30,779 nucleotides of DNA from Thermoplasmata archaeon (lineage in GTDB: Archaea; Thermoplasmatota; SW-10-69-26; JACQPN01; JAJPHT01): contig JAXDQU010000076.1 of NCBI GenBank assembly GCA_034667685.1, forward strand, positions 1-30,779, written 5' to 3'. The first letter of the stretch is position 1; every line of letters begins with the position of its first letter. The notes beneath the pieces were generated by a model. The model worked only from the letters and a program-made list of their open reading frames with translations, was not told the DNA's origin and made no database searches. Positions 4,893 through 29,933 of the stretch are shown in pieces. A program made the translations under genes and the position numbers.

Positions 4893-4898
4893 GCGGTG

Positions 4899-4984
4899 CG
4901 ACTCCAGCCACAGAGGACACGGAGGACACAGAGGCGGGTTTTCTCGTCCTCTGTGAACCTTCGTGTCCTCTGTGGCTGGAGTCG
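4899..4984. repeat. Palindromic element of 9-nt CAC(A/G)GAGGA units
   Basis: CGACTCCAGCCACAGAGGACACGGAGG pairs with CCTTCGTGTCCTCTGTGGCTGGAGTCG, with an inner CACAGAGG/CCTCTGTG stem. Confidence 0.9.
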
Positions 4985-5030
4985 GAGCGGGACAAACGCT
5001 CAAGCGGCCGACCGAGGCTGCGGCATCCGG

Positions 5031-5444
5031 ATGCCCTGCGGCCACGCCTACTTCGACCACACCGCCGACGTGGGCATCCACGCCTGGGGCGAGACGCTGG
5101 AGGAGGCGTTCGCAGAGGCGGCCGTGGCGCTCGTGGCGTACATGGTGGAGACGGCCGACGCGAAGCCCGTGGGCGAGGCGCGTCTAGAGGTAGAAGCCGA
5201 GACGCGCGACCGCCTGCTCTACCGCTTCCTGGACGAGGTGCTTGATTTGCTCCAGACGCGGCTCTACGTCGTGACGCGCGCCCGCGTCCGCTTCGAGGGC
5301 GCCACGCGCCTCGTGGCCGACGTCGAGGGCGAGGCGTACGACGCGGCGCGGCACGGCCACGTCCACGAGGTGAAGGCCATCACGTTCCACGACCTGCACG
5401 TCTCGGAGCGGCCGCCGGACGTGCGCGTCATCTTGGACATTTGA
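5031..5444 (+). CDS. Archease (RtcB activator)
   Basis: YFDHTADVG, EEAFAEAA, EVKAITFH and terminal VILDI signature motifs. ATG at 5031. Confidence 0.95.
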   Translation: MPCGHAYFDHTADVGIHAWGETLEEAFAEAAVALVAYMVETADAKPVGEARLEVEAETRDRLLYRFLDEVLDLLQTRLYVVTRARVRFEGATRLVADVEGEAYDAARHGHVHEVKAITFHDLHVSERPPDVRVILDI

Positions 5445-5576: not shown

Positions 5577-5894
5577 TCAGTACTTCGCCAGCCGGTCGTC
5601 GACCTCGTCCGCCCAGGCGTCAATACCGCCGGCGACGTTCTCGGCGCGGTAGCCCCGCGCGGCGAGCCACGCGGCCACCATCTGCGAGCGGCTGCCGTGG
5701 TGGCAGATCACGAGGACGGGCTTGTCCTGCGGGATCTCGGCGAGCCGCGCCGGCACCTCGCGCATGGGGATCCAGAGGGCGCCCTCGACCTCGGCGATCT
5801 CGATCTCGCTCTCCTCGCGCACGTCGAGCAGGGTCGCGGCGCCCGCCCGGAAGCGCAGCGCGGCGGCGACCACCTCGGTCTGGGGGACCGGCAT
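5577..5894 (-). CDS. Single-domain rhodanese-like sulfurtransferase
   Basis: LLDVRE, active-site loop ICHHGSRS, NVAGGIDAW, C-terminal VDDRLAKY. Confidence 0.93.
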   Translation of the reverse strand: MPVPQTEVVAAALRFRAGAATLLDVREESEIEIAEVEGALWIPMREVPARLAEIPQDKPVLVICHHGSRSQMVAAWLAARGYRAENVAGGIDAWADEVDDRLAKY

Positions 5895-5920
5895 CGGAGC
5901 CGGCAAGCGGGCTGCTGCAC

Positions 5921-5999
5921 TTGGGGCTTTGGGCTTGGGGAGGGCTCGGGGCTCTGGACTCGGGGCTCAGGGCTCCGGAGCCCTGAGCCCCGAGCCCGA
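5921..5999. repeat. Palindromic element of 7-nt GG(G/A)CTC(A/G/T) units
   Basis: CTCGGGGCTCAGGGCTC-CG-GAGCCCTGAGCCCCGAG with further degenerate heptamers upstream. Confidence 0.88.
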
Positions 6000-6138: not shown

Positions 6139-7143
6139 ATGGCCAAGAAGGCTACCACCGTGACCCTCGAACCCGAAGACGACACCCCGGTCACCGAAGG
6201 CCAGACCATCACCGACATCGGCGATCTGCCCGGCGTGGGCCCGGCGACCGCGGAGAAGCTGAAGGAGGCCGGGTTCACCGACCTCATGTCCATCGCCGTG
6301 GCCAGCCCCAGCGACCTGGGCGAGGCCGCGGACCTGGGCGACGCCGTCGCGGTCAAGATCATCGCCGCGGCCCGCAAGCTCGCCAACGTGGGCGGCTTCG
6401 AGACGGGTGACGTCATCGCCGACCGGCGCAGCCGCGTGGGCAAGATCACCACCGGCTCGAAGGCCCTGGACGAGCTCCTGGGCGGCGGCGTCGAGACGCA
6501 GGCCATCACCGAGTTCTACGGCGAGTTCGGCAGCGGCAAGACCCAGTTCATGCACCAGCTCGCGGTGAACGTCCAGATGCCCGCCGAGGACGGCGGCCTG
6601 GGCGGCGAGGTCATCGTCATCGACACGGAGAACACGTTCCGCCCCGAGCGCATCGTGCAGATGGCCGACGCCATCGGCCTCGATCCGAAGGAGGCGCTCT
6701 CCAAGATCCACGTGGCGCGCGCCTTCAACTCGCACCACCAGATGCTCCTGGCCGAGAAGGCCACGGAACTGGCGAAGTCGAAGAACATCAAGCTCATGGT
6801 CGTCGACTCGCTCACCGCGCACTTCCGCGCCGAGTACGTGGGCCGCGGCACGCTGGCGAACCGTCAGGGCAAGCTCAACACGTTCATGCACGACATCCTG
6901 CGCTTCGGCGACCTGAACAACGCGGCCATCGCCGTGACCAACCAGGTCCACGCCAAGCCGGATGCGTTCTTCGGCGACCCGACGCGCCCCGTGGGCGGCC
7001 ACATCGTGGGCCACACGGCGACGTTCCGCATGTACCTCCGCAAGTCGAAGGGCAACAAGCGCATCGTGCGGCTCATCGACTCGCCGCATTTGCCGGAAGG
7101 AGAAGCGATCGTCAGCGTGACCGAAGATGGGATTCGGGACTGA
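6139..7143 (+). CDS. radA: DNA repair and recombination protein RadA
   Basis: N-terminal HhH ([13 protein letters not shown]), Walker [56 protein letters not shown] at 6139 after GGAGAG. Confidence 0.98.
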
Positions 7144-7315
7144 GCGAAGCGAAGGCCCGAAGGCCATCGAGTCACGCTGGCGACCGTTTCGACTGAAGGC
7201 AAATGCGGCGAGGTGATGATAGGCCGGACCGCAGTCCGGCCGTGTCATCGACTCGCCGCATTTGCCGGAAGGAGAAGCCATCGTCAGCGTGACCGAAGAC
7301 GGGATTCGGGACTGA
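7073..7315. repeat. Direct-inverted-direct triplication of the radA 3' end
   Basis: 7073-7143 and 7245-7315 are 69/71 identical. 7171-7219 matches the reverse complement of 7073-7121 at 39/49. Hairpin GGCCGGAC-CGCA-GTCCGGCC at 7222-7241. Confidence 0.95.
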
Positions 7316-7320
7316 AGAAG

Positions 7321-7359
7321 GAGGATCGGGGGCGCCTCGCGCCCCCGCGTCTCGTCCTC
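7321..7359. terminator. Hairpin between convergent radA and PGF-CTERM genes
   Basis: GAGGA..CGGGGGCGC-CTC-GCGCCCCCG..TCCTC. Confidence 0.5.
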
Positions 7360-8218
7360 ACTTGCGGCGCCGGAGCGCGAGCACCGCCGCGACGACGCCC
7401 AGCGCGCCCAGCGCGAAGACCGCTTCGAAGCCCGGCGCGCCCTTGCTCGTCGTGCCGGTCGACTCGTTGGTGCCGCTGCTGTTGCCGCCAGTGCTCGTGT
7501 TGCCGGTGCCCGTGCCGGACGTGCCCGTGCCGGTCGAGGTGCCCGTGCCGGCGCCACTGGACTTGATGGTGCCCACGACGGTGCCGGTGTTGGCGAGCAC
7601 GAGGCTCACGTTGCCCGACGCCGGGAGGCTCACCTTCACGGTGACGGAGCCACAGCCGGGGACCGTCACGGGGAAGGTCGACATGGCGCCGCCGGTGCCA
7701 TTGCCCGTGCCGTTGCTGCCCGTGCCGGTGCCGCCGGTCGCGCCGCAGGTCATCCCAGAGCCGGTCATGTTGCCCGTGCCCGACGTCGTCCCGGTGGACG
7801 AGCCGGTGCCGCACGACGAGCCGCTCGTGCCGGAGGTGCCGCCGCTCGAGGTGCCGTTGCCGGTGCCCGCCGTGCACACGTCGAGCATGACGTCGCTCGA
7901 GCCGTTGTTCACGAACTTGAGGGTCAGGCTCGTCGCGCCGCTGGGCGCCGTGATGGTGGCGGGCGACAGGCAGCCGTTGCCCGTCGTGCCACCGGCGCCC
8001 CCGGAGGCGGTGCCGTTCGACGTGCCGTTCGACGAGGTTGCCGAGCCGCACGCGTCGGTCAGGTAGACCGTGATCGTGGTCGTGCTGTTGGAGGCGCCGC
8101 TGCCCGTCGTCGAGCCCGAGCCGGTGCTGCCGGAGCCCGAGCCATACTGCGCGTCGGCGAGCGTCGCAAAGCCCAGCGCGCCGCAAGCGAGGAGGGCAAG
8201 AAGGATCCTGGTGTTCAT
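7358..8218 (-). CDS. Gly/Ser/Thr-rich secreted surface (glyco)protein with PGF-CTERM sorting signal
   Basis: Signal peptide MNTRILLALL...ADA. C-terminus KGAPGFEAVFALGALGVVAAVLALRRRK (PGF, TM helix, basic tail) is the archaeosortase A target pattern. Many N-x-T/S sequons. Confidence 0.88.
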   Translation of the reverse strand: MNTRILLALLACGALGFATLADAQYGSGSGSTGSGSTTGSGASNSTTTITVYLTDACGSATSSNGTSNGTASGGAGGTTGNGCLSPATITAPSGATSLTLKFVNNGSSDVMLDVCTAGTGNGTSSGGTSGTSGSSCGTGSSTGTTSGTGNMTGSGMTCGATGGTGTGSNGTGNGTGGAMSTFPVTVPGCGSVTVKVSLPASGNVSLVLANTGTVVGTIKSSGAGTGTSTGTGTSGTGTGNTSTGGNSSGTNESTGTTSKGAPGFEAVFALGALGVVAAVLALRRRK

Positions 8219-8308
8219 GGAGACCGGCCCCAGCGAGCAAGCGCGCGCGGATGGCCTCTTTCGAACACGGGGGGAAATCGAGATGCGCCGCGGCAGCCAT
8301 CGCCAGGC

Positions 8309-9019
8309 GTGGGCGCGGCGGACGAGATCCTGGCGACCCTGCGCGCCGAGGCGAGCGAACGGAACGTCGCGGGCATGGCGCGCTTCGGCATCCGCGGCGC
8401 GAAGGCGTACGGCGTCCCGGTCCCCCGCCTGCGCCAGCTCGCCAGGCCCCTCGGCCGCGACCGCGCGTTGGCCCGGGCGCTCTGGCGCGACGGGAGCGTC
8501 GAGGGCAAGATCCTCGCCTCGCTGCTCGACGAGCCGGACAAGCTCACGCGGCGCGGCGCGGAACGATATCTCCGCGGCTTCGAGAATTGGGCCGAGACGG
8601 ATGCGTTCGCGATGAACCTCTTCGACCGCGCGGCGTGGGCGCACGAGGCGGCGGTGGCGTGGAGCGCGCGCGAGCCCGAGTTCGAGAAGCGGACCGCGTT
8701 CGCCCTCATGGCCGCCCTCGCCTCGCACGACAAGAAGGCGCCCGACGCCGCGTTCCTCCGCTTCCTCCCCGTGATCGAGCGCGAGGCCGGCGACGCGCGC
8801 AACTTCGTCAAGAAGGCCGTCAGCTGGGCGCTGCGCGGCATCGGCAAGCGCAACCCCGCGCTGCGCCGCGCGGCCGTGGCGAGCGCCAAACGCATCCGGA
8901 AGCGGGGCACGCCCGGCGCGCGGTGGATCGCGGCCGACGCGCTTCGCGAGCTGGCGCCGAAACGGAGCCGGGCCCACGAGAAGCGCCCAAGCCGTCCGCG
9001 CCCTCGGCGCTGCCCGTGA
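8309..9019 (+). CDS. DNA alkylation repair protein (AlkD-like HEAT-repeat family)
   Basis: GMARFGI...YGVPVPRLRQLA, WAETD, EFEKRTAF, DARNFVKKAVSWALRGIGKRN. Confidence 0.9.
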   Translation: MGAADEILATLRAEASERNVAGMARFGIRGAKAYGVPVPRLRQLARPLGRDRALARALWRDGSVEGKILASLLDEPDKLTRRGAERYLRGFENWAETDAFAMNLFDRAAWAHEAAVAWSAREPEFEKRTAFALMAALASHDKKAPDAAFLRFLPVIEREAGDARNFVKKAVSWALRGIGKRNPALRRAAVASAKRIRKRGTPGARWIAADALRELAPKRSRAHEKRPSRPRPRRCP

Positions 9020-9021
9020 GC

Positions 9022-9054
9022 CGCGCCGCGCGCACCCGCTCGCTGCGCTCGCTA
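9022..9054 (-). repeat. Short repeat anchored on a TAG stop codon (second copy at 26964-26993)
   Basis: Plus strand GCGCCGCGCGCAC(C)CGCTCGCT(G/A)CGCTCGCTA is shared by both sites. The final CTA is the stop of the minus-strand gene in both. Confidence 0.75.
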
Positions 9055-9423
9055 ACGGCGCTTCTGCTGCTTGTCGAAGCCGCGCGCGAGGTCGCTGCGC
9101 TTCTTCTGGCCACCCTTGGCGGCGACCTGCGCGACGAGGCTGCGCGTCTGGCGCGTCTGCCCCTGCTTCCGGGCGTGCGCCGTCTCGTCGGTCACGCGCA
9201 TCTCGCTGGCGACGACGAGCTTGACCTGGAACTCGCTGGGCTCCGTGCCCTCCACCGCGCCGCGGATCTCCTTGACCTCGAACCAGCGCAGCGGCCCGTA
9301 GACGGAGTCCTCGCCTTCCTCGGCCTCGACCTGGGCGCCCACCTGTGAGAGCGCGGCGCGGATCGCGTCGCTCACCGACGTCCCCGAGGTGCCCACGCAC
9401 TCGATCATCTTGTAGACGGTCAT
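9052..9423 (-). CDS. Dodecin-family flavin-binding protein with an acidic insertion and a basic C-terminal extension
   Basis: VYKMIECVGTS..SVSDAIRAAL, LRWFEVKEIRG, EFQVKL. Confidence 0.85.
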   Translation of the reverse strand: MTVYKMIECVGTSGTSVSDAIRAALSQVGAQVEAEEGEDSVYGPLRWFEVKEIRGAVEGTEPSEFQVKLVVASEMRVTDETAHARKQGQTRQTRSLVAQVAAKGGQKKRSDLARGFDKQQKRR

Positions 9424-15335: not shown

Positions 15336-18300
15336 TTACTCTGCCTTGCGCCGGATGCGCGGGTACACGGCCTGGCCCACGACGACGACCGCGAGGCCGA
15401 TGGTGGTCCAGAGGAACACCGAGGGCGGGCTGGGCTCGGAGAGGGTGATCGTCCTCGTGCTGAAGTGCGCGAGGGTGACGATCGCCTGGAGGCCGGCCTC
15501 GGCCTGCGTCGTGATCAGGTAGTACTTGTCCGCGTTGGGCGTGAGCGCGTCCTGGTACGACTTGGCCTGGCTCAGCTCGTGGCCGTCGACCATGAGCTTC
15601 GCGTTGCCGTCGATCAGGCCGCTGACCGTGTTGCGGTCGAGGCTCAGGATGACGCTCTTGCCGGTGTGCGTGGCGCTGTCGATGGCGACCTGCACCTGGT
15701 CGGTCGTGGCGACCTGCGCGACCGCGAGCACGTTGCCGTAGTAGTTGACGACGGCGCTCGTGGTGGCGTGCGTCGCGGCGTCGGTGTGCACGATGACCTG
15801 GCCCAGGAGCTTGCCGCTCGCGATGGCCTGCGCCTGCGCCTCCTTCTGCGCCTCGGAGAGCTCGCTCTCGAAGCCGCTGAAGGCCTTGAACATCACCGTG
15901 GCGCCAGCATCGAGCCCGGCGGACACTTGTCCGCCGGCTTCTCCGCTGGTCTGGAGCGCGCCGTTGCCGATCGCGATGAGGGCGCCGCTGAAGTCCGGAG
16001 CGCTGAGCATGACGACCTGGTCGTCGAGCTGCGTGGGCTGCACGTTGCTGGCGAGGTCGAAGACCGCATGGGTGTTCTCCGCGGCGGTCGCCTTGAGGAC
16101 GGCCTCGCTCACGTCGAACGCCTCGACGCTGCCCGAGGGGCCGACCCACTTGATGCTGCTGGGGCTGCTGCCCGAGCCGGCGTCGAAGGCCGCGTTGCCC
16201 AGGCGCACCGCGTCGAACACCTTGGTCGTGGTGCCGGCCGCGGCGTCCGCGGAGGCCTTCGCCGCCACGGTGTAGTCGAGCACGAGGCCCGCCTCGGGCT
16301 TGGCGACCAGGCTCACGATCTTGCCGCTCTGCGCGCCGCCGTAGCCGGGCACGAACTCGCCGAAGACGTCGAGCGCGGCGGCCTCGCGGCTCGCCTGGTC
16401 GAGGTTGCTCTTGGCGACGATGCTCGCGGCCTCGCCCGCGGCGAGGTAGGGGACGAGGACGATGACCTGCGTGAGGCCCTCGCTCGTGCCGACCCAGTAC
16501 TGGGCCTGCGCGTTGGCGTTCGCGCTGACGGAGGCGAGCGCCTCGGCCGCGCTGTCCACCGCGACCGCGGCCTTGCCGTTCACGGTGACCGCGACGTCGC
16601 TGGCGGTGCGCGCCGCGAGGGTCGCCTGGTCCGCGACGAGGACGACCGCGGTGGCCTGCGCCTTCGCGGCCGCGTCGTTGACCGCGTCGAGCGTCACGAC
16701 GCCGCGGTGCGTGGCGTCCGCGCCCTGCTTGATCGCGGTGTGGAAGTCCTTGTGGTAGTCGACGTGCACGCCCTCGATGGCGTTGGCGACGTAGCCGACG
16801 CTGGCCTCGCTCCCGACCGCGCCGGAGGCGATCGCCTTGGCGATGATGTCGGCGCTGGCCTTGCCCTGCGCCTCGATGGCGCCGCGGAAGACGAGCTTCT
16901 CGCCCTGCGCGATCTTGGCCTTGACCTCCTCGGTCTTGGAGAGGTCGAACTGCGAGTGCGCGGCGGCGGTGCCGTCGGCGCCCGTGAGGATCAGGTACCC
17001 GACCTTGCCGGCGGGCCCGTCGAGCTCCACGACGTTCGCGGCGTCCGCGAGCGCGTGGGCGCTGATATCATTGGACAGGTGGAAGTCCTCGGTGGCCGCG
17101 AGGTCGGCCTCGGTCTGGATCGCGCTGTAGACCGAGTCGGTGAACTCGGTCGAGGCGGCGACCTGCCCGGCGACCTTCGTGGTCATGATGACCGCGGCGC
17201 CCGCGGTGGCCTGCGCGCTCTCCTTGGCGTAGGCGCTCGCTTCGAGCTGCGCGCGCGAGGTGAACTCGGCGGCCGCGTCGGCGGCGATGTCGCCCGCGAC
17301 CTCGATCTTCGTGAAGATCTCCTGGCTGGAGCGCACGTCCGTGAAGTGGCGCACGCTCGTGTCGCCCTTCGCCTCGCTCGCGAAGAACTCGCTGAAGCTG
17401 CCGATGACCTGGCCGCTCCCCGCGGCGCTGGTCTCCAGGTCGCCCAGCATGCTGTAGCCGCCCTGGATCTGCTCGGTCAACGCGCTCGCGGCGTCGAGCT
17501 CCGCCAGCGTGCTGGCGGCGGCCTCGCCCTGCGCGAGCGCGGCGATGGTCACCTGGGTCGCCGCGTCGACGCGGGCCGCGACGTTGGTCACGACGAGGAC
17601 GCGGCCGTCCACGGCCCACGCCCAGTAGGAGTCGGCGTGCGTCGCGACGTCGGACGCGGCGGAGACGCGCTGCGCGAGCGCGCCATCGACGTAGACTGCG
17701 ACGGAGTCCGCGGTCTGGGCCGGGACGTCGACGTAGTCGAGATCGTAGGCAAGGACCTCGGCGTGGGCGCACGCCTGGGCGGACGCGGACCCAGTCGCGG
17801 CGACGGCCTGGCCTGCGGCGTCCGCGGCGCTGCAAGCCTCGGCGCTGGCCGTGGACTTGAGCGTCGTGGTGACGCGCGTGCTCTCCTTGACCTCGGTGCG
17901 CGCCTGCGCGAAGGCGTGGTACTGCGCCTGCGCGATGAGCTGCGCGCCGCTGGAGAACTCGGTCGTGGCCTCGCCGACGAGCTTGCCGCTCGCCATGAGG
18001 TGCACGACCTCCTGGTTGTACGCGGACGCGGCGGCGTCGATCGCGCCCGTGGCGCGGTTGACGTACGACGCATCCGAGCGGAAGACGAGCTGCGCGCCCT
18101 GCTTGAGCTTGGCCTGCGCGGTGTGCTGGCCGGCGAGCGCGACGTTGCTGCCGTCCTGCGCGGAGTCGTTCTGGTCCGCGCGCAGCAGCACGATGGCGCC
18201 CTGCACGGCGCCGGCGCCCTGGCCCGCGACGCGCCAGACGTTCTGGGCGTCCGCGTCGGGCGAGAGGAGCACGTCGGCCGGCGTGTGGAACGTGACGAAC

Positions 18301-26787: not shown

Positions 26788-26993
26788 CTTGCTTGCGCCG
26801 CTCCTCTCGCTGCGTCGGCCTTCGGCCTCCTCGCTCGGGGCGGCGAGCGCGCGGCGCAAGCGCGACGCGAAACGCGTCGCGCGAGGCCGAACCGAGGTTC
26901 GGCCGAATGCGCGCCTCCGGCGCTTGTCTCCGCTCCGGCCCTTCGGGCCGGGCTGCGACCCTGCGCCGCGCGCACCGCTCGCTACGCTCGCTA
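26788..26993. repeat. REP-like cluster of very stable short hairpins
   Basis: GGCCTTCGGCC, GCGCGACGCGAAACGCGTCGCGC, GGCCGAACCGAGGTTCGGCC, CCGGCCCTTCGGGCCGG, ending in the stop-anchored repeat. Confidence 0.75.
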
Positions 26994-29844: not shown

Positions 29845-29933
29845 GGCTCTGGACTCAGGACTCGGGACTCAGGGCTCTGGACTCGGGACTCAAGGCTCCG
29901 GAGCCCCGAGCCCTGAGTCCTGAGCCCAGAGCC
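29845..29933. repeat. Palindromic element of 7-nt units
   Basis: About eight GG(A/G)CTC-type units followed by five inverted GAG(C/T)CC units. Confidence 0.9.

Follow-up and report, generated by a model that had tools for sequence, protein, structure and literature searches.

The repeated 3' end of radA in a Thermoplasmata archaeon belongs to a family of small dispersed hairpin elements

Results

The radA gene ends in direct, inverted and direct copies of its own 3' sequence

We analysed a 30,779-nt stretch of DNA (the window, read on the forward strand), which is contig JAXDQU010000076.1 of a Thermoplasmata archaeon (assembly GCA_034667685.1, here G000), and in particular a small element at the 3' end of its radA gene. 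A preliminary description of this DNA had reported that the end of radA recurs downstream with an inverted copy in between, and had proposed either an antisense hairpin switch or the scar of an element that integrates into the gene. The locus is built of the following parts:

6139..7143, plus strand: radA coding sequence, encoding an archaeal RadA recombinase of 334 amino acids; intact in the list of open reading frames (ORFs), terminating in the first repeat copy
7073..7143, plus strand: A1, the in-frame copy of the gene end with its TGA stop; starts one base into a CTC codon, at its 'TC'
7144..7155, plus strand: loop module at the first turn, 12 nt, purine-rich, with a mini-hairpin that has a GAA loop
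7153..7219, minus strand: A', the inverted and degenerate copy of the gene end; ungapped section 7171-7219
7219..7244, plus strand: 26-nt hairpin module, the hallmark of the family; stem 7222-7229 / 7234-7241, loop 7230-7233, consensus pattern AYAGGCCGRRCCGNAGYYCGGCCGTG
7245..7315, plus strand: A2, the second gene-end copy, displaced downstream and closed by its own stop; not in the radA frame (offset 172)

The observation reported earlier was confirmed. The last 71 bp of radA are repeated 172 bp apart (start to start) and the two copies agree at 69 of 71 nt, with the element inserted 70 nt before the radA stop; among their 23 whole codons, 21 are the same, two carry synonymous third-position changes and none is changed non-synonymously. 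Over its ungapped 49 nt, A' is 80% complementary to 7073-7121 and 78% complementary to 7245-7293, which corresponds to 39 Watson-Crick pairs, 3 G-T pairs and 7 mismatches against A1 (the 39/49 match reported earlier) and to 38, 3 and 8 against A2. One small gap extends A' back to ~7153, so that 66 nt are covered, 53 of them identical to copy 1. The hairpin at 7222-7241 has a perfect 8-bp GC stem and a 4-nt loop. A switch to rare codons inside the repeat was likewise borne out, as 7 of its 22 codons end in A or T, compared to 10 of the 312 codons elsewhere in radA (p = 2.5e-5, Fisher test), the switch falling at 7073. In addition, A1 is 24% different from the closest relative vs 11% for the gene body.

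The RadA protein itself is unaltered by the element, and it has matches in 38 of 41 related genomes (E 1e-95 to 1e-219). Reading of the sequence revealed no start codon from which A2 could be translated independently between an in-frame TAG (7220-7222) and the copy, and no evident bulge-helix-bulge motif of the kind that would allow RNA splicing of the insert. The repeat carries neither the hairpin nor the loop module at its outer borders.

A possible misassembly was checked against contigs of sequencing runs. Run X1 yielded a 198-nt contig that agrees with 7077-7274 at every position; this contig is not independent because X1 may be the source sample. In run X3, from another study, a contig begins inside the hairpin at 7227 and continues through the second copy, and the junction between hairpin and second copy has therefore been seen independently. 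The second junction is covered in X1 and X3; the first, from copy 1 to the inverted copy, is spanned in X1 alone. Run X2 has no contig across 7107-7341, in filled or empty form, and holds another hairpin copy elsewhere; X9, an RNA library, yielded a radA contig from a more distant relative that ends at 7140. Both runs are uninformative on presence or expression of the element.

The hairpin is a dispersed module

When positions 7073-7315 were searched against their own genome, the surroundings of the hairpin recurred on other contigs. With up to five substitutions allowed, the hairpin module has 15 copies in G000, and a structure-based scan brought the number to 20 and exposed a second subfamily. 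At no more than two mismatches, 11 copies were found in G000, one in G003 (same genus), six in G008 (same family) and none in the 38 other relatives; a reversed pattern, used as control, gave 0 matches everywhere. A second hairpin pattern, searched across the whole order (15 genomes), added one extra copy, in G005. The feature at radA is a member of this dispersed family of small elements, which has so far been seen in no other archaeal family. In the alignment of the 20 copies, all 144 stem cells are paired, four of the eight pairs have changed on both sides and 0 of 500 shuffles reached the observed score, a result to be read with the caveat that the search pattern already favoured complementary purine/pyrimidine pairs at two stem positions. 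The hairpin carries a 5' tag, NNAG, which reads ATAG in 11 of the 20 aligned copies and GTAG in one. A 22-nt hairpin pattern was also tried as a probe for a wider set of contigs and was discarded as too generic, since it matched GC-rich bacteria.

Solitary hairpin copies exist as well, within a HAD hydrolase gene, at the 5' end of a radical SAM gene and between genes. The first lies in frame within the gene of a HAD-family hydrolase (G000:C11, ~31900-31950; L043:1013-1921, minus strand) and adds ~14 residues to a variable loop, against 3 in the closest relative. The second lies on the strand opposite to the radical SAM gene (G000:C39, ~43700-43850; L049); here the first 7-8 codons of the gene are doubled and a Shine-Dalgarno-like purine run precedes the inner copy, which suggests that gene starts can also be duplicated. 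For hairpin loci without a local repeat, flank searches at 13 hairpin loci found no distant partner. Certain second-subfamily copies belong to larger composite repeats. One such copy lies in the window itself, at 26882-26907 between two minus-strand genes, and its flanks (up to 42 nt) recur on C13, C64, C109 and C111.

The same layout stands behind unrelated genes and tRNAs

At 8 of the 23 hairpin loci examined in G000, a direct repeat starts exactly at the 3' end of the hairpin and its partner is the end of the upstream gene on the same strand. The hosts are S10, S2, RNA polymerase subunit N, an AAA ATPase, a C-terminally anchored surface protein, a conserved gene at the start of contig C9, RadA and tRNA-Gln. 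Five further loci with the layout were reached by routes other than the hairpin scan. The common order of parts is a gene end with its stop, a short loop module, the inverted copy, the hairpin and the second gene-end copy. A 10-mer of the loop module directly follows TGA at five protein genes (C76, C19, C68, C84, C15) and also stands behind a tRNA-Leu (C108), and at six G000 loci stop codon and loop module form a 13-nt string after the last sense codon or the tRNA end. At the tRNA-Leu of C108 the loop motif caps a perfect 20-bp fold-back and there is no second direct copy. The layout is also found at the end of an acidic ribosomal protein gene and at a second tRNA-Leu, and a MutS-like gene has a 161-nt repeat whose inverted copy spans only the first 23 nt, with the loop motif inside the hairpin loop.

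Across loci, the direct repeats span 14 to 161 nt; at every locus A' directly adjoins the hairpin and is paired to the start of A2, over a length that varies from 6 nt to the whole repeat. The insertion point falls after the first codon base and before 'TC' at all eight coding loci, a regularity to which we give little weight because GC-rich codon usage favours it. Both pieces at the turns are modules common to unrelated loci and not local flank. The doubt that had been voiced over a plain neutral duplication was justified, because both junction pieces are family-wide modules. A scan for triple k-mers returned 13 loci, only four of which (radA, C118, C61 and C72) are gene-end elements by eye, the others being GC-rich or coding repeats; its reversed-genome control is invalid, since reversal preserves both kinds of repeat.

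Several tRNA loci show variants. On G000:C79 (~17514-17760; L321:5515-5760), a tRNA-Arg is followed by two more copies of its last 16-17 nt. Small hairpins stand between the copies, and in their loops a six-base motif of the family hairpin recurs; the gene of a tyrosine integrase is located ~420 nt upstream of this tRNA. A tRNA-Ser on G008:C166 (L319:6055-6256) and a tRNA with a CAT anticodon on G008:C342 (L039) each have a second, partial copy of their 3' half after ~10-16 nt, and in this variant the hairpin module splits the second copy. As to the conserved gene on C9 (element at C9:662), it also matches the end of C110, beside another hairpin copy, and the assembly probably breaks inside a repeat at the C9 start and C110 end.

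The two direct copies differ as coding sequences do

We compared the two direct copies in 17 A1/A2 pairs, which together comprise 188 whole codons. Thirty-eight codons differ, of which 35 are synonymous, two non-synonymous (both in G002) and one a stop-to-stop change; the strict clipping behind these counts missed two non-synonymous changes seen by eye, Leu to Pro in S10 of G001 and Lys to stop at one G008 locus. By codon position, the nucleotide differences are distributed 7/2/34. The MutS-like locus alone contributes 53 codons (161 nt) with seven differences, all synonymous. Since synonymous changes account for 35 of the 38, each copy evolved as a coding sequence; a drifting in-place duplicate would be expected to change mostly non-synonymously, so the copies diverged while each served as a gene end. 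This pattern of substitutions implies that the divergence arose in different lineages, or that one copy is regularly replaced by a functional allele.

When the alignments are read, A2 tends to resemble the ends found at empty sites of relatives and A1 carries rarer codons. Compared with the closest relative, the A1 regions differ at 29 of 151 sites vs 170 of 2015 in the gene bodies (p = 6e-5). Pooled over nine loci, codons ending in A or T make up 14 of 71 in A1 and 12 of 71 in A2 vs 113 of 1906 in gene bodies, a body figure in which the S10 gene part overshoots into non-coding sequence. In run X3, the A1 region has a single difference in 154 nt from that of the window, and the A2 linked to the hairpin has five further differences, all synonymous and towards G/C-ending codons, together with a different downstream flank.

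Filled and empty sites in relatives

To place the radA element among relatives, 107 radA 3' ends were located (30 loci in relatives and 80 on metagenome contigs, minus 3 without a recognisable end), 106 of which could be tested downstream. Only the radA of the window shows the repeat, with a direct-repeat score of 132, the next best scores (24-27) lying away from the gene end; conservation of the inverted copy in related radA flanks was therefore not observed. In G003, the closest relative (94% RadA identity), the site is empty, and beyond the radA stop lie an ordinary hairpin and the same convergent gene; the site is also empty in the only close RadA relative on metagenome contigs (93%). G008 has a miniature version behind radA, an 11-nt repeat around a different hairpin.

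Other gene ends are affected in more genomes, often with other inserts. The S10 end is affected in G001, G002, G004 (three copies), G008, G010 and G011, and the repeat in G002 is perfect over at least 78 nt by codon alignment and ~113 nt by eye. The rpoN end is affected in G004 (three tandem copies) and G005, and that of the C9 gene in G002 and G008 (52-nt repeat, other insertion point) and, in degenerate form, in G003 and G004. Two hairpins stand at G008:C263. Empty sites are known for the S10, rpoN and C9 genes alike. The finding is more general than the radA locus alone.

Predicted folds of the radA repeat

The region 7060-7360 folds at -171 kcal/mol, compared to -124.9 +/- 5.8 in shuffled sequences (z = -7.9; 0 of 100 as good). 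A1 with A', and A' with A2, form alternative and mutually exclusive predicted RNA hairpins of -97.5 and -110.2 kcal/mol. The physical side of the earlier proposal, an antisense switch of two exclusive hairpins of similar energy, thus stands, while its conservation fails, as 105 other radA ends lack the layout. No Rfam family was reached at the gathering score; the best of eight weak matches scored 33.2 bits vs 268, to a plant miRNA hairpin model. Since the same layout stands behind unrelated genes and tRNAs, it is a property of the element and not of radA regulation, and there is no support for a conserved radA riboregulator. The effect on radA is probably limited to a very stable hairpin at the 3' end of the mRNA and a locally unstable stretch of DNA.

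Neighbourhood of radA and other repeats

One further feature borders the element:

7316..7358, no strand: inverted repeat I4, arms 7316-7335 / 7339-7358; ordinary, GC-rich and outside the element, between radA and a convergent gene for a secreted protein

From their translations only, the neighbours of radA are an archease-like ORF (4896-5444), a rhodanese-like ORF (5577-5906) and the convergent ORF (7358-9400), whose product looks like a Gly/Ser/Thr-rich secreted protein with a C-terminal PGF-type anchor. A separate and abundant family of palindromic repeats is present in the window at 5935-5996, just upstream of radA, and at ~29872-29933; it accounts for 133 BLAST segments over dozens of G000 contigs. 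G000 is rich in several mutually unrelated hairpin repeats.

Discussion

A candidate miniature integrative element

The construction of the radA element recalls the folded attP of CTXphi. This phage, one of the elements that exploit Xer recombinases, has two inverted att copies ~90 bp apart that fold as a single strand, one strand exchange takes place and replication completes the insertion; the integrated order is site, element, inverted site, loop and site (PMC4246890). Here too the att-like sequence is present twice in inverted orientation around a short loop, could fold into a mimic of the site and shows the same integrated order of parts. Unlike in CTXphi, the 'site' is not dif but the last 14-161 nt of a housekeeping gene or tRNA, cargo is all but absent, with only 101 nt between the copies, a conserved 26-nt hairpin forms the loop, the host belongs to the Archaea and no recombinase is linked to the element.

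We tentatively favour reading the radA feature as a miniature integrative element, one that brings along a replacement for the gene end and is inserted at its hairpin's foot in the manner of the CTXphi attP; taken as a whole, this reading is plausible though somewhat short of probable. The mobile unit would consist of A1, loop, A' and hairpin (~172 nt at radA). In the single-stranded or extruded unit, A' would fold back over the hairpin onto the element's own gene end and so form a stem that mimics the chromosomal target. Strand exchange at the 3' foot of the hairpin, before 'TC' and after the first codon base, would join the element into the gene, and replication would complete the insertion; the element-borne A1 would become the translated end and the resident end, A2, would be displaced downstream. 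A tyrosine recombinase of G000 would be the obvious candidate enzyme, and a double fold-back copying error the likeliest start for the first capture of a new gene end. Integration as a unit would account for the order of parts, for A1 and A' travelling together, for A2 as the resident end, for the sharp boundary, for a unit that stops just after the stop codon and for tandem copies. The reading is supported by the existence of a family, the repeated layout, presence and absence among relatives, coding-type divergence, the modules at the junctions, the sharp boundary, the alleles of X3 and the tandem copies. Of the earlier proposal that a folded-site element restored the radA 3' end, the anatomy and the substitution pattern fit, and the actors (recombinase, circle, cargo) did not turn up; since they were not found, we can only infer the mechanism. 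Larger cargo between direct repeats did not turn up either: the flank searches at the 13 hairpin loci revealed no locus with kilobases between the copies.

Several observations weigh against this integrative reading. No recombinase gene lies beside any element. Matches to tyrosine integrases (PF00589) number five in G000, three in G003 and seven in G008, with none in G001 or G007 (five genomes searched), and the five G000 integrase genes that were located sit away from the elements; the three integrases whose surroundings were examined (one in G000, on C79, and two in G008) adjoin tRNA genes. No protein of the Y1/RAYT, IS110 or TnpB families was found in the five genomes, no circular or free form was seen, though none could be searched for, and viral contigs gave 0 matches. 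An element specific for one gene end would also need a route to new ends. Some loci of relatives, such as S10 in G002, have direct repeats that enclose other inserts and lack an inverted copy, and the direct copies are identical at C82, C84, G002 S10 and G004 rpoN, as in-place duplication predicts. At radA itself, A2 shares most of the unusual codons of A1, which calls for later gene conversion or for young copies. Finally, at sites where A1 and A2 differ, A' follows A1 over A2 at 27:1 when aligned to A1 and at 10:12 when aligned to A2. The only alignment-independent sites are the two of radA, both A1-type, and the test was dropped as evidence because its outcome depends on the alignment reference.

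Alternative explanations

The main rival to the integrative reading is an error of replication, in which two fold-back template switches at stable hairpins would have produced a small inverted triplication in place (duplicated, inverted, duplicated; DUP/INV/DUP). The synonymous-only differences would then be of later date, as homologous recombination with strains that lack the element replaced one copy by a functional allele. The layout is exactly direct-inverted-direct, and small inverted triplications of ~148/160/148 bp with spacers and short junctions have been described as replication errors that are lost by slippage over hairpins (PMC13334657). The likeness to such triplications and to origin-dependent inverted-repeat amplification in yeast and human tumours extends to the spacers at the turns, the potential to form hairpins and the proneness to precise loss by slippage. 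The identical direct copies at several loci, the tRNA-Leu fold-back with its perfect 20-bp stem and no second direct copy, and the second copy of X3, which differs together with the flank behind it as in a recombination tract, would all be natural products of this process, and the enrichment of A/T-ending codons in both copies fits a local mutation hot spot. However, the described triplications are sporadic and have local spacers, whereas here both turns are modules of unrelated loci that are absent at the outer borders, the sites are gene ends in a fixed cut context (always before 'TC' in one codon phase at 8 of 8 coding loci), and the coding-type divergence, 35 synonymous to 2 non-synonymous, would demand very frequent recombination at every locus. 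We regard replication error as rather unlikely, and as an alternative to be taken seriously.

A scar of a large element appears improbable. In this scenario the radA end served as att site for a virus or plasmid that encoded a tyrosine integrase, and a near-total deletion left attL and attR separated by 101 nt. Such integrations are recognised by direct repeats of a gene end whose upstream copy completes the gene, the three hairpin-bearing genomes searched contain tyrosine integrases, which were not found in the two that lack the hairpin, and tRNA ends of G000 carry tandem repeats of their own 3' ends; yet the same hairpin and loop module would have to outlast identical deletions at more than 10 genes, the flank searches at 13 hairpin loci revealed neither kilobases of cargo nor a distant partner, and the inverted copy is left unexplained. 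A conserved RNA switch or terminator, in which the antisense copy pairs with the coding end or with the downstream copy and so sets the stability or termination of the radA mRNA, would make sense of the two very stable exclusive hairpins and of the fact that the elements all lie on the coding strand of the host gene at its 3' end and are thus likely transcribed. With the layout missing from all other radA ends, including the closest relative, with no Rfam match and with an identical construction behind unrelated genes and tRNAs, we consider such a switch highly improbable. Even less credible is an artefact of assembly or library, from chimeric fold-back reads or an unremoved hairpin adapter. 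It is true that amplification chimeras can yield direct-inverted-direct structures and that the sole contig over the first junction comes from a possible source sample, but the hairpin module and the gene-end repeats occur in four separately assembled genomes, contigs of other studies contain another hairpin copy (X2) and the junction of hairpin and second copy (X3), and an adapter origin is impossible because the copies have diverged with compensatory stem changes.

Relation to known repeats and integrative elements

Among known repeats, REP sequences (and REPIN, BIME and the Rickettsia palindromic elements) come close. REPs are short GC-rich palindromes with a tag, dispersed behind genes, which sometimes supply a stop or lie in frame in genes, and no target duplication is reported in the consulted part of the paper (PMC3733652). 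To that extent the hairpins resemble them as dispersed GC palindromes that stand behind genes, sometimes supply the stop codon and have an in-frame copy in a HAD hydrolase. The conserved tag of REPs is GTAG or CGTC at one end, and the NNAG tag of the present hairpins may or may not correspond to it. The size of a REP (20-40 nt, GC-rich, dispersed) fits the 26-nt module with its 8-bp stem, ~20 copies and covariation, although the copy number is low for REP. Unlike in REP, the target is duplicated here and the long stems derive from the target and not from the element; moreover, the RAYT transposase (PF01797) had no match in the five genomes, while 6 of 14 control genomes matched. We rejected a miniature inverted-repeat transposable element, which would have terminal inverted repeats of its own and a short target duplication of constant size, because the inverted arms are each locus's own gene end and the direct repeats vary in length (14-161 nt). 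An integron attC was also set aside: the junction reads ...CGTG|TC..., and reading of the sequence revealed neither GTTRRRY nor a cassette array, with no search aimed at the IntI subfamily.

In elements that restore the 3' end of their target, such as those of the tRNA-targeting archaeal integrases or the homing-endonuclease element behind the hybrid atp6 of Allomyces, the incoming copy completes the gene and the resident end persists as an untranslated remnant. On the integrative reading, the radA-type elements would behave in the same way, the incoming copy completing the gene and the displaced end differing at synonymous sites. Unlike those elements, which measure kilobases and bring their own enzyme, they span 100-250 nt and encode nothing. 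In the literature (supplementary material lay outside the scope), we found no description of gene-end direct-plus-inverted duplications around dispersed hairpins in prokaryotes.

Altogether, we tentatively consider an integrating element with a folded site, which restores the gene end, the best available explanation. It is a more speculative and rather doubtful step to see here a new class of archaeal mini integrative elements without an enzyme of their own, each made of the recoded last 5-55 codons of an essential gene, or a tRNA 3' end, and an antisense copy whose fold over a conserved hairpin mimics the target; such elements would spread between species harmlessly via the most conserved genes, and their target would be determined by pairing inside the element and could be re-set by the capture of a new end. 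There is probably no consequence for RadA biology beyond the strong 3' structure. For annotation, the displaced ends are a warning, as they mimic gene fragments, and the 3' ends of radA, ribosomal protein and rpoN genes in these genomes are mosaics. Even if the elements arose by replication error, they would provide a ready-made set of small inverted triplications that have become fixed at essential gene ends. If the integrative reading is true, they would be the smallest known integrative elements and the first archaeal case of integration through a folded attachment site whose specificity lies in a stem copied from the target, and they would make it testable how site-specific elements gain new targets.

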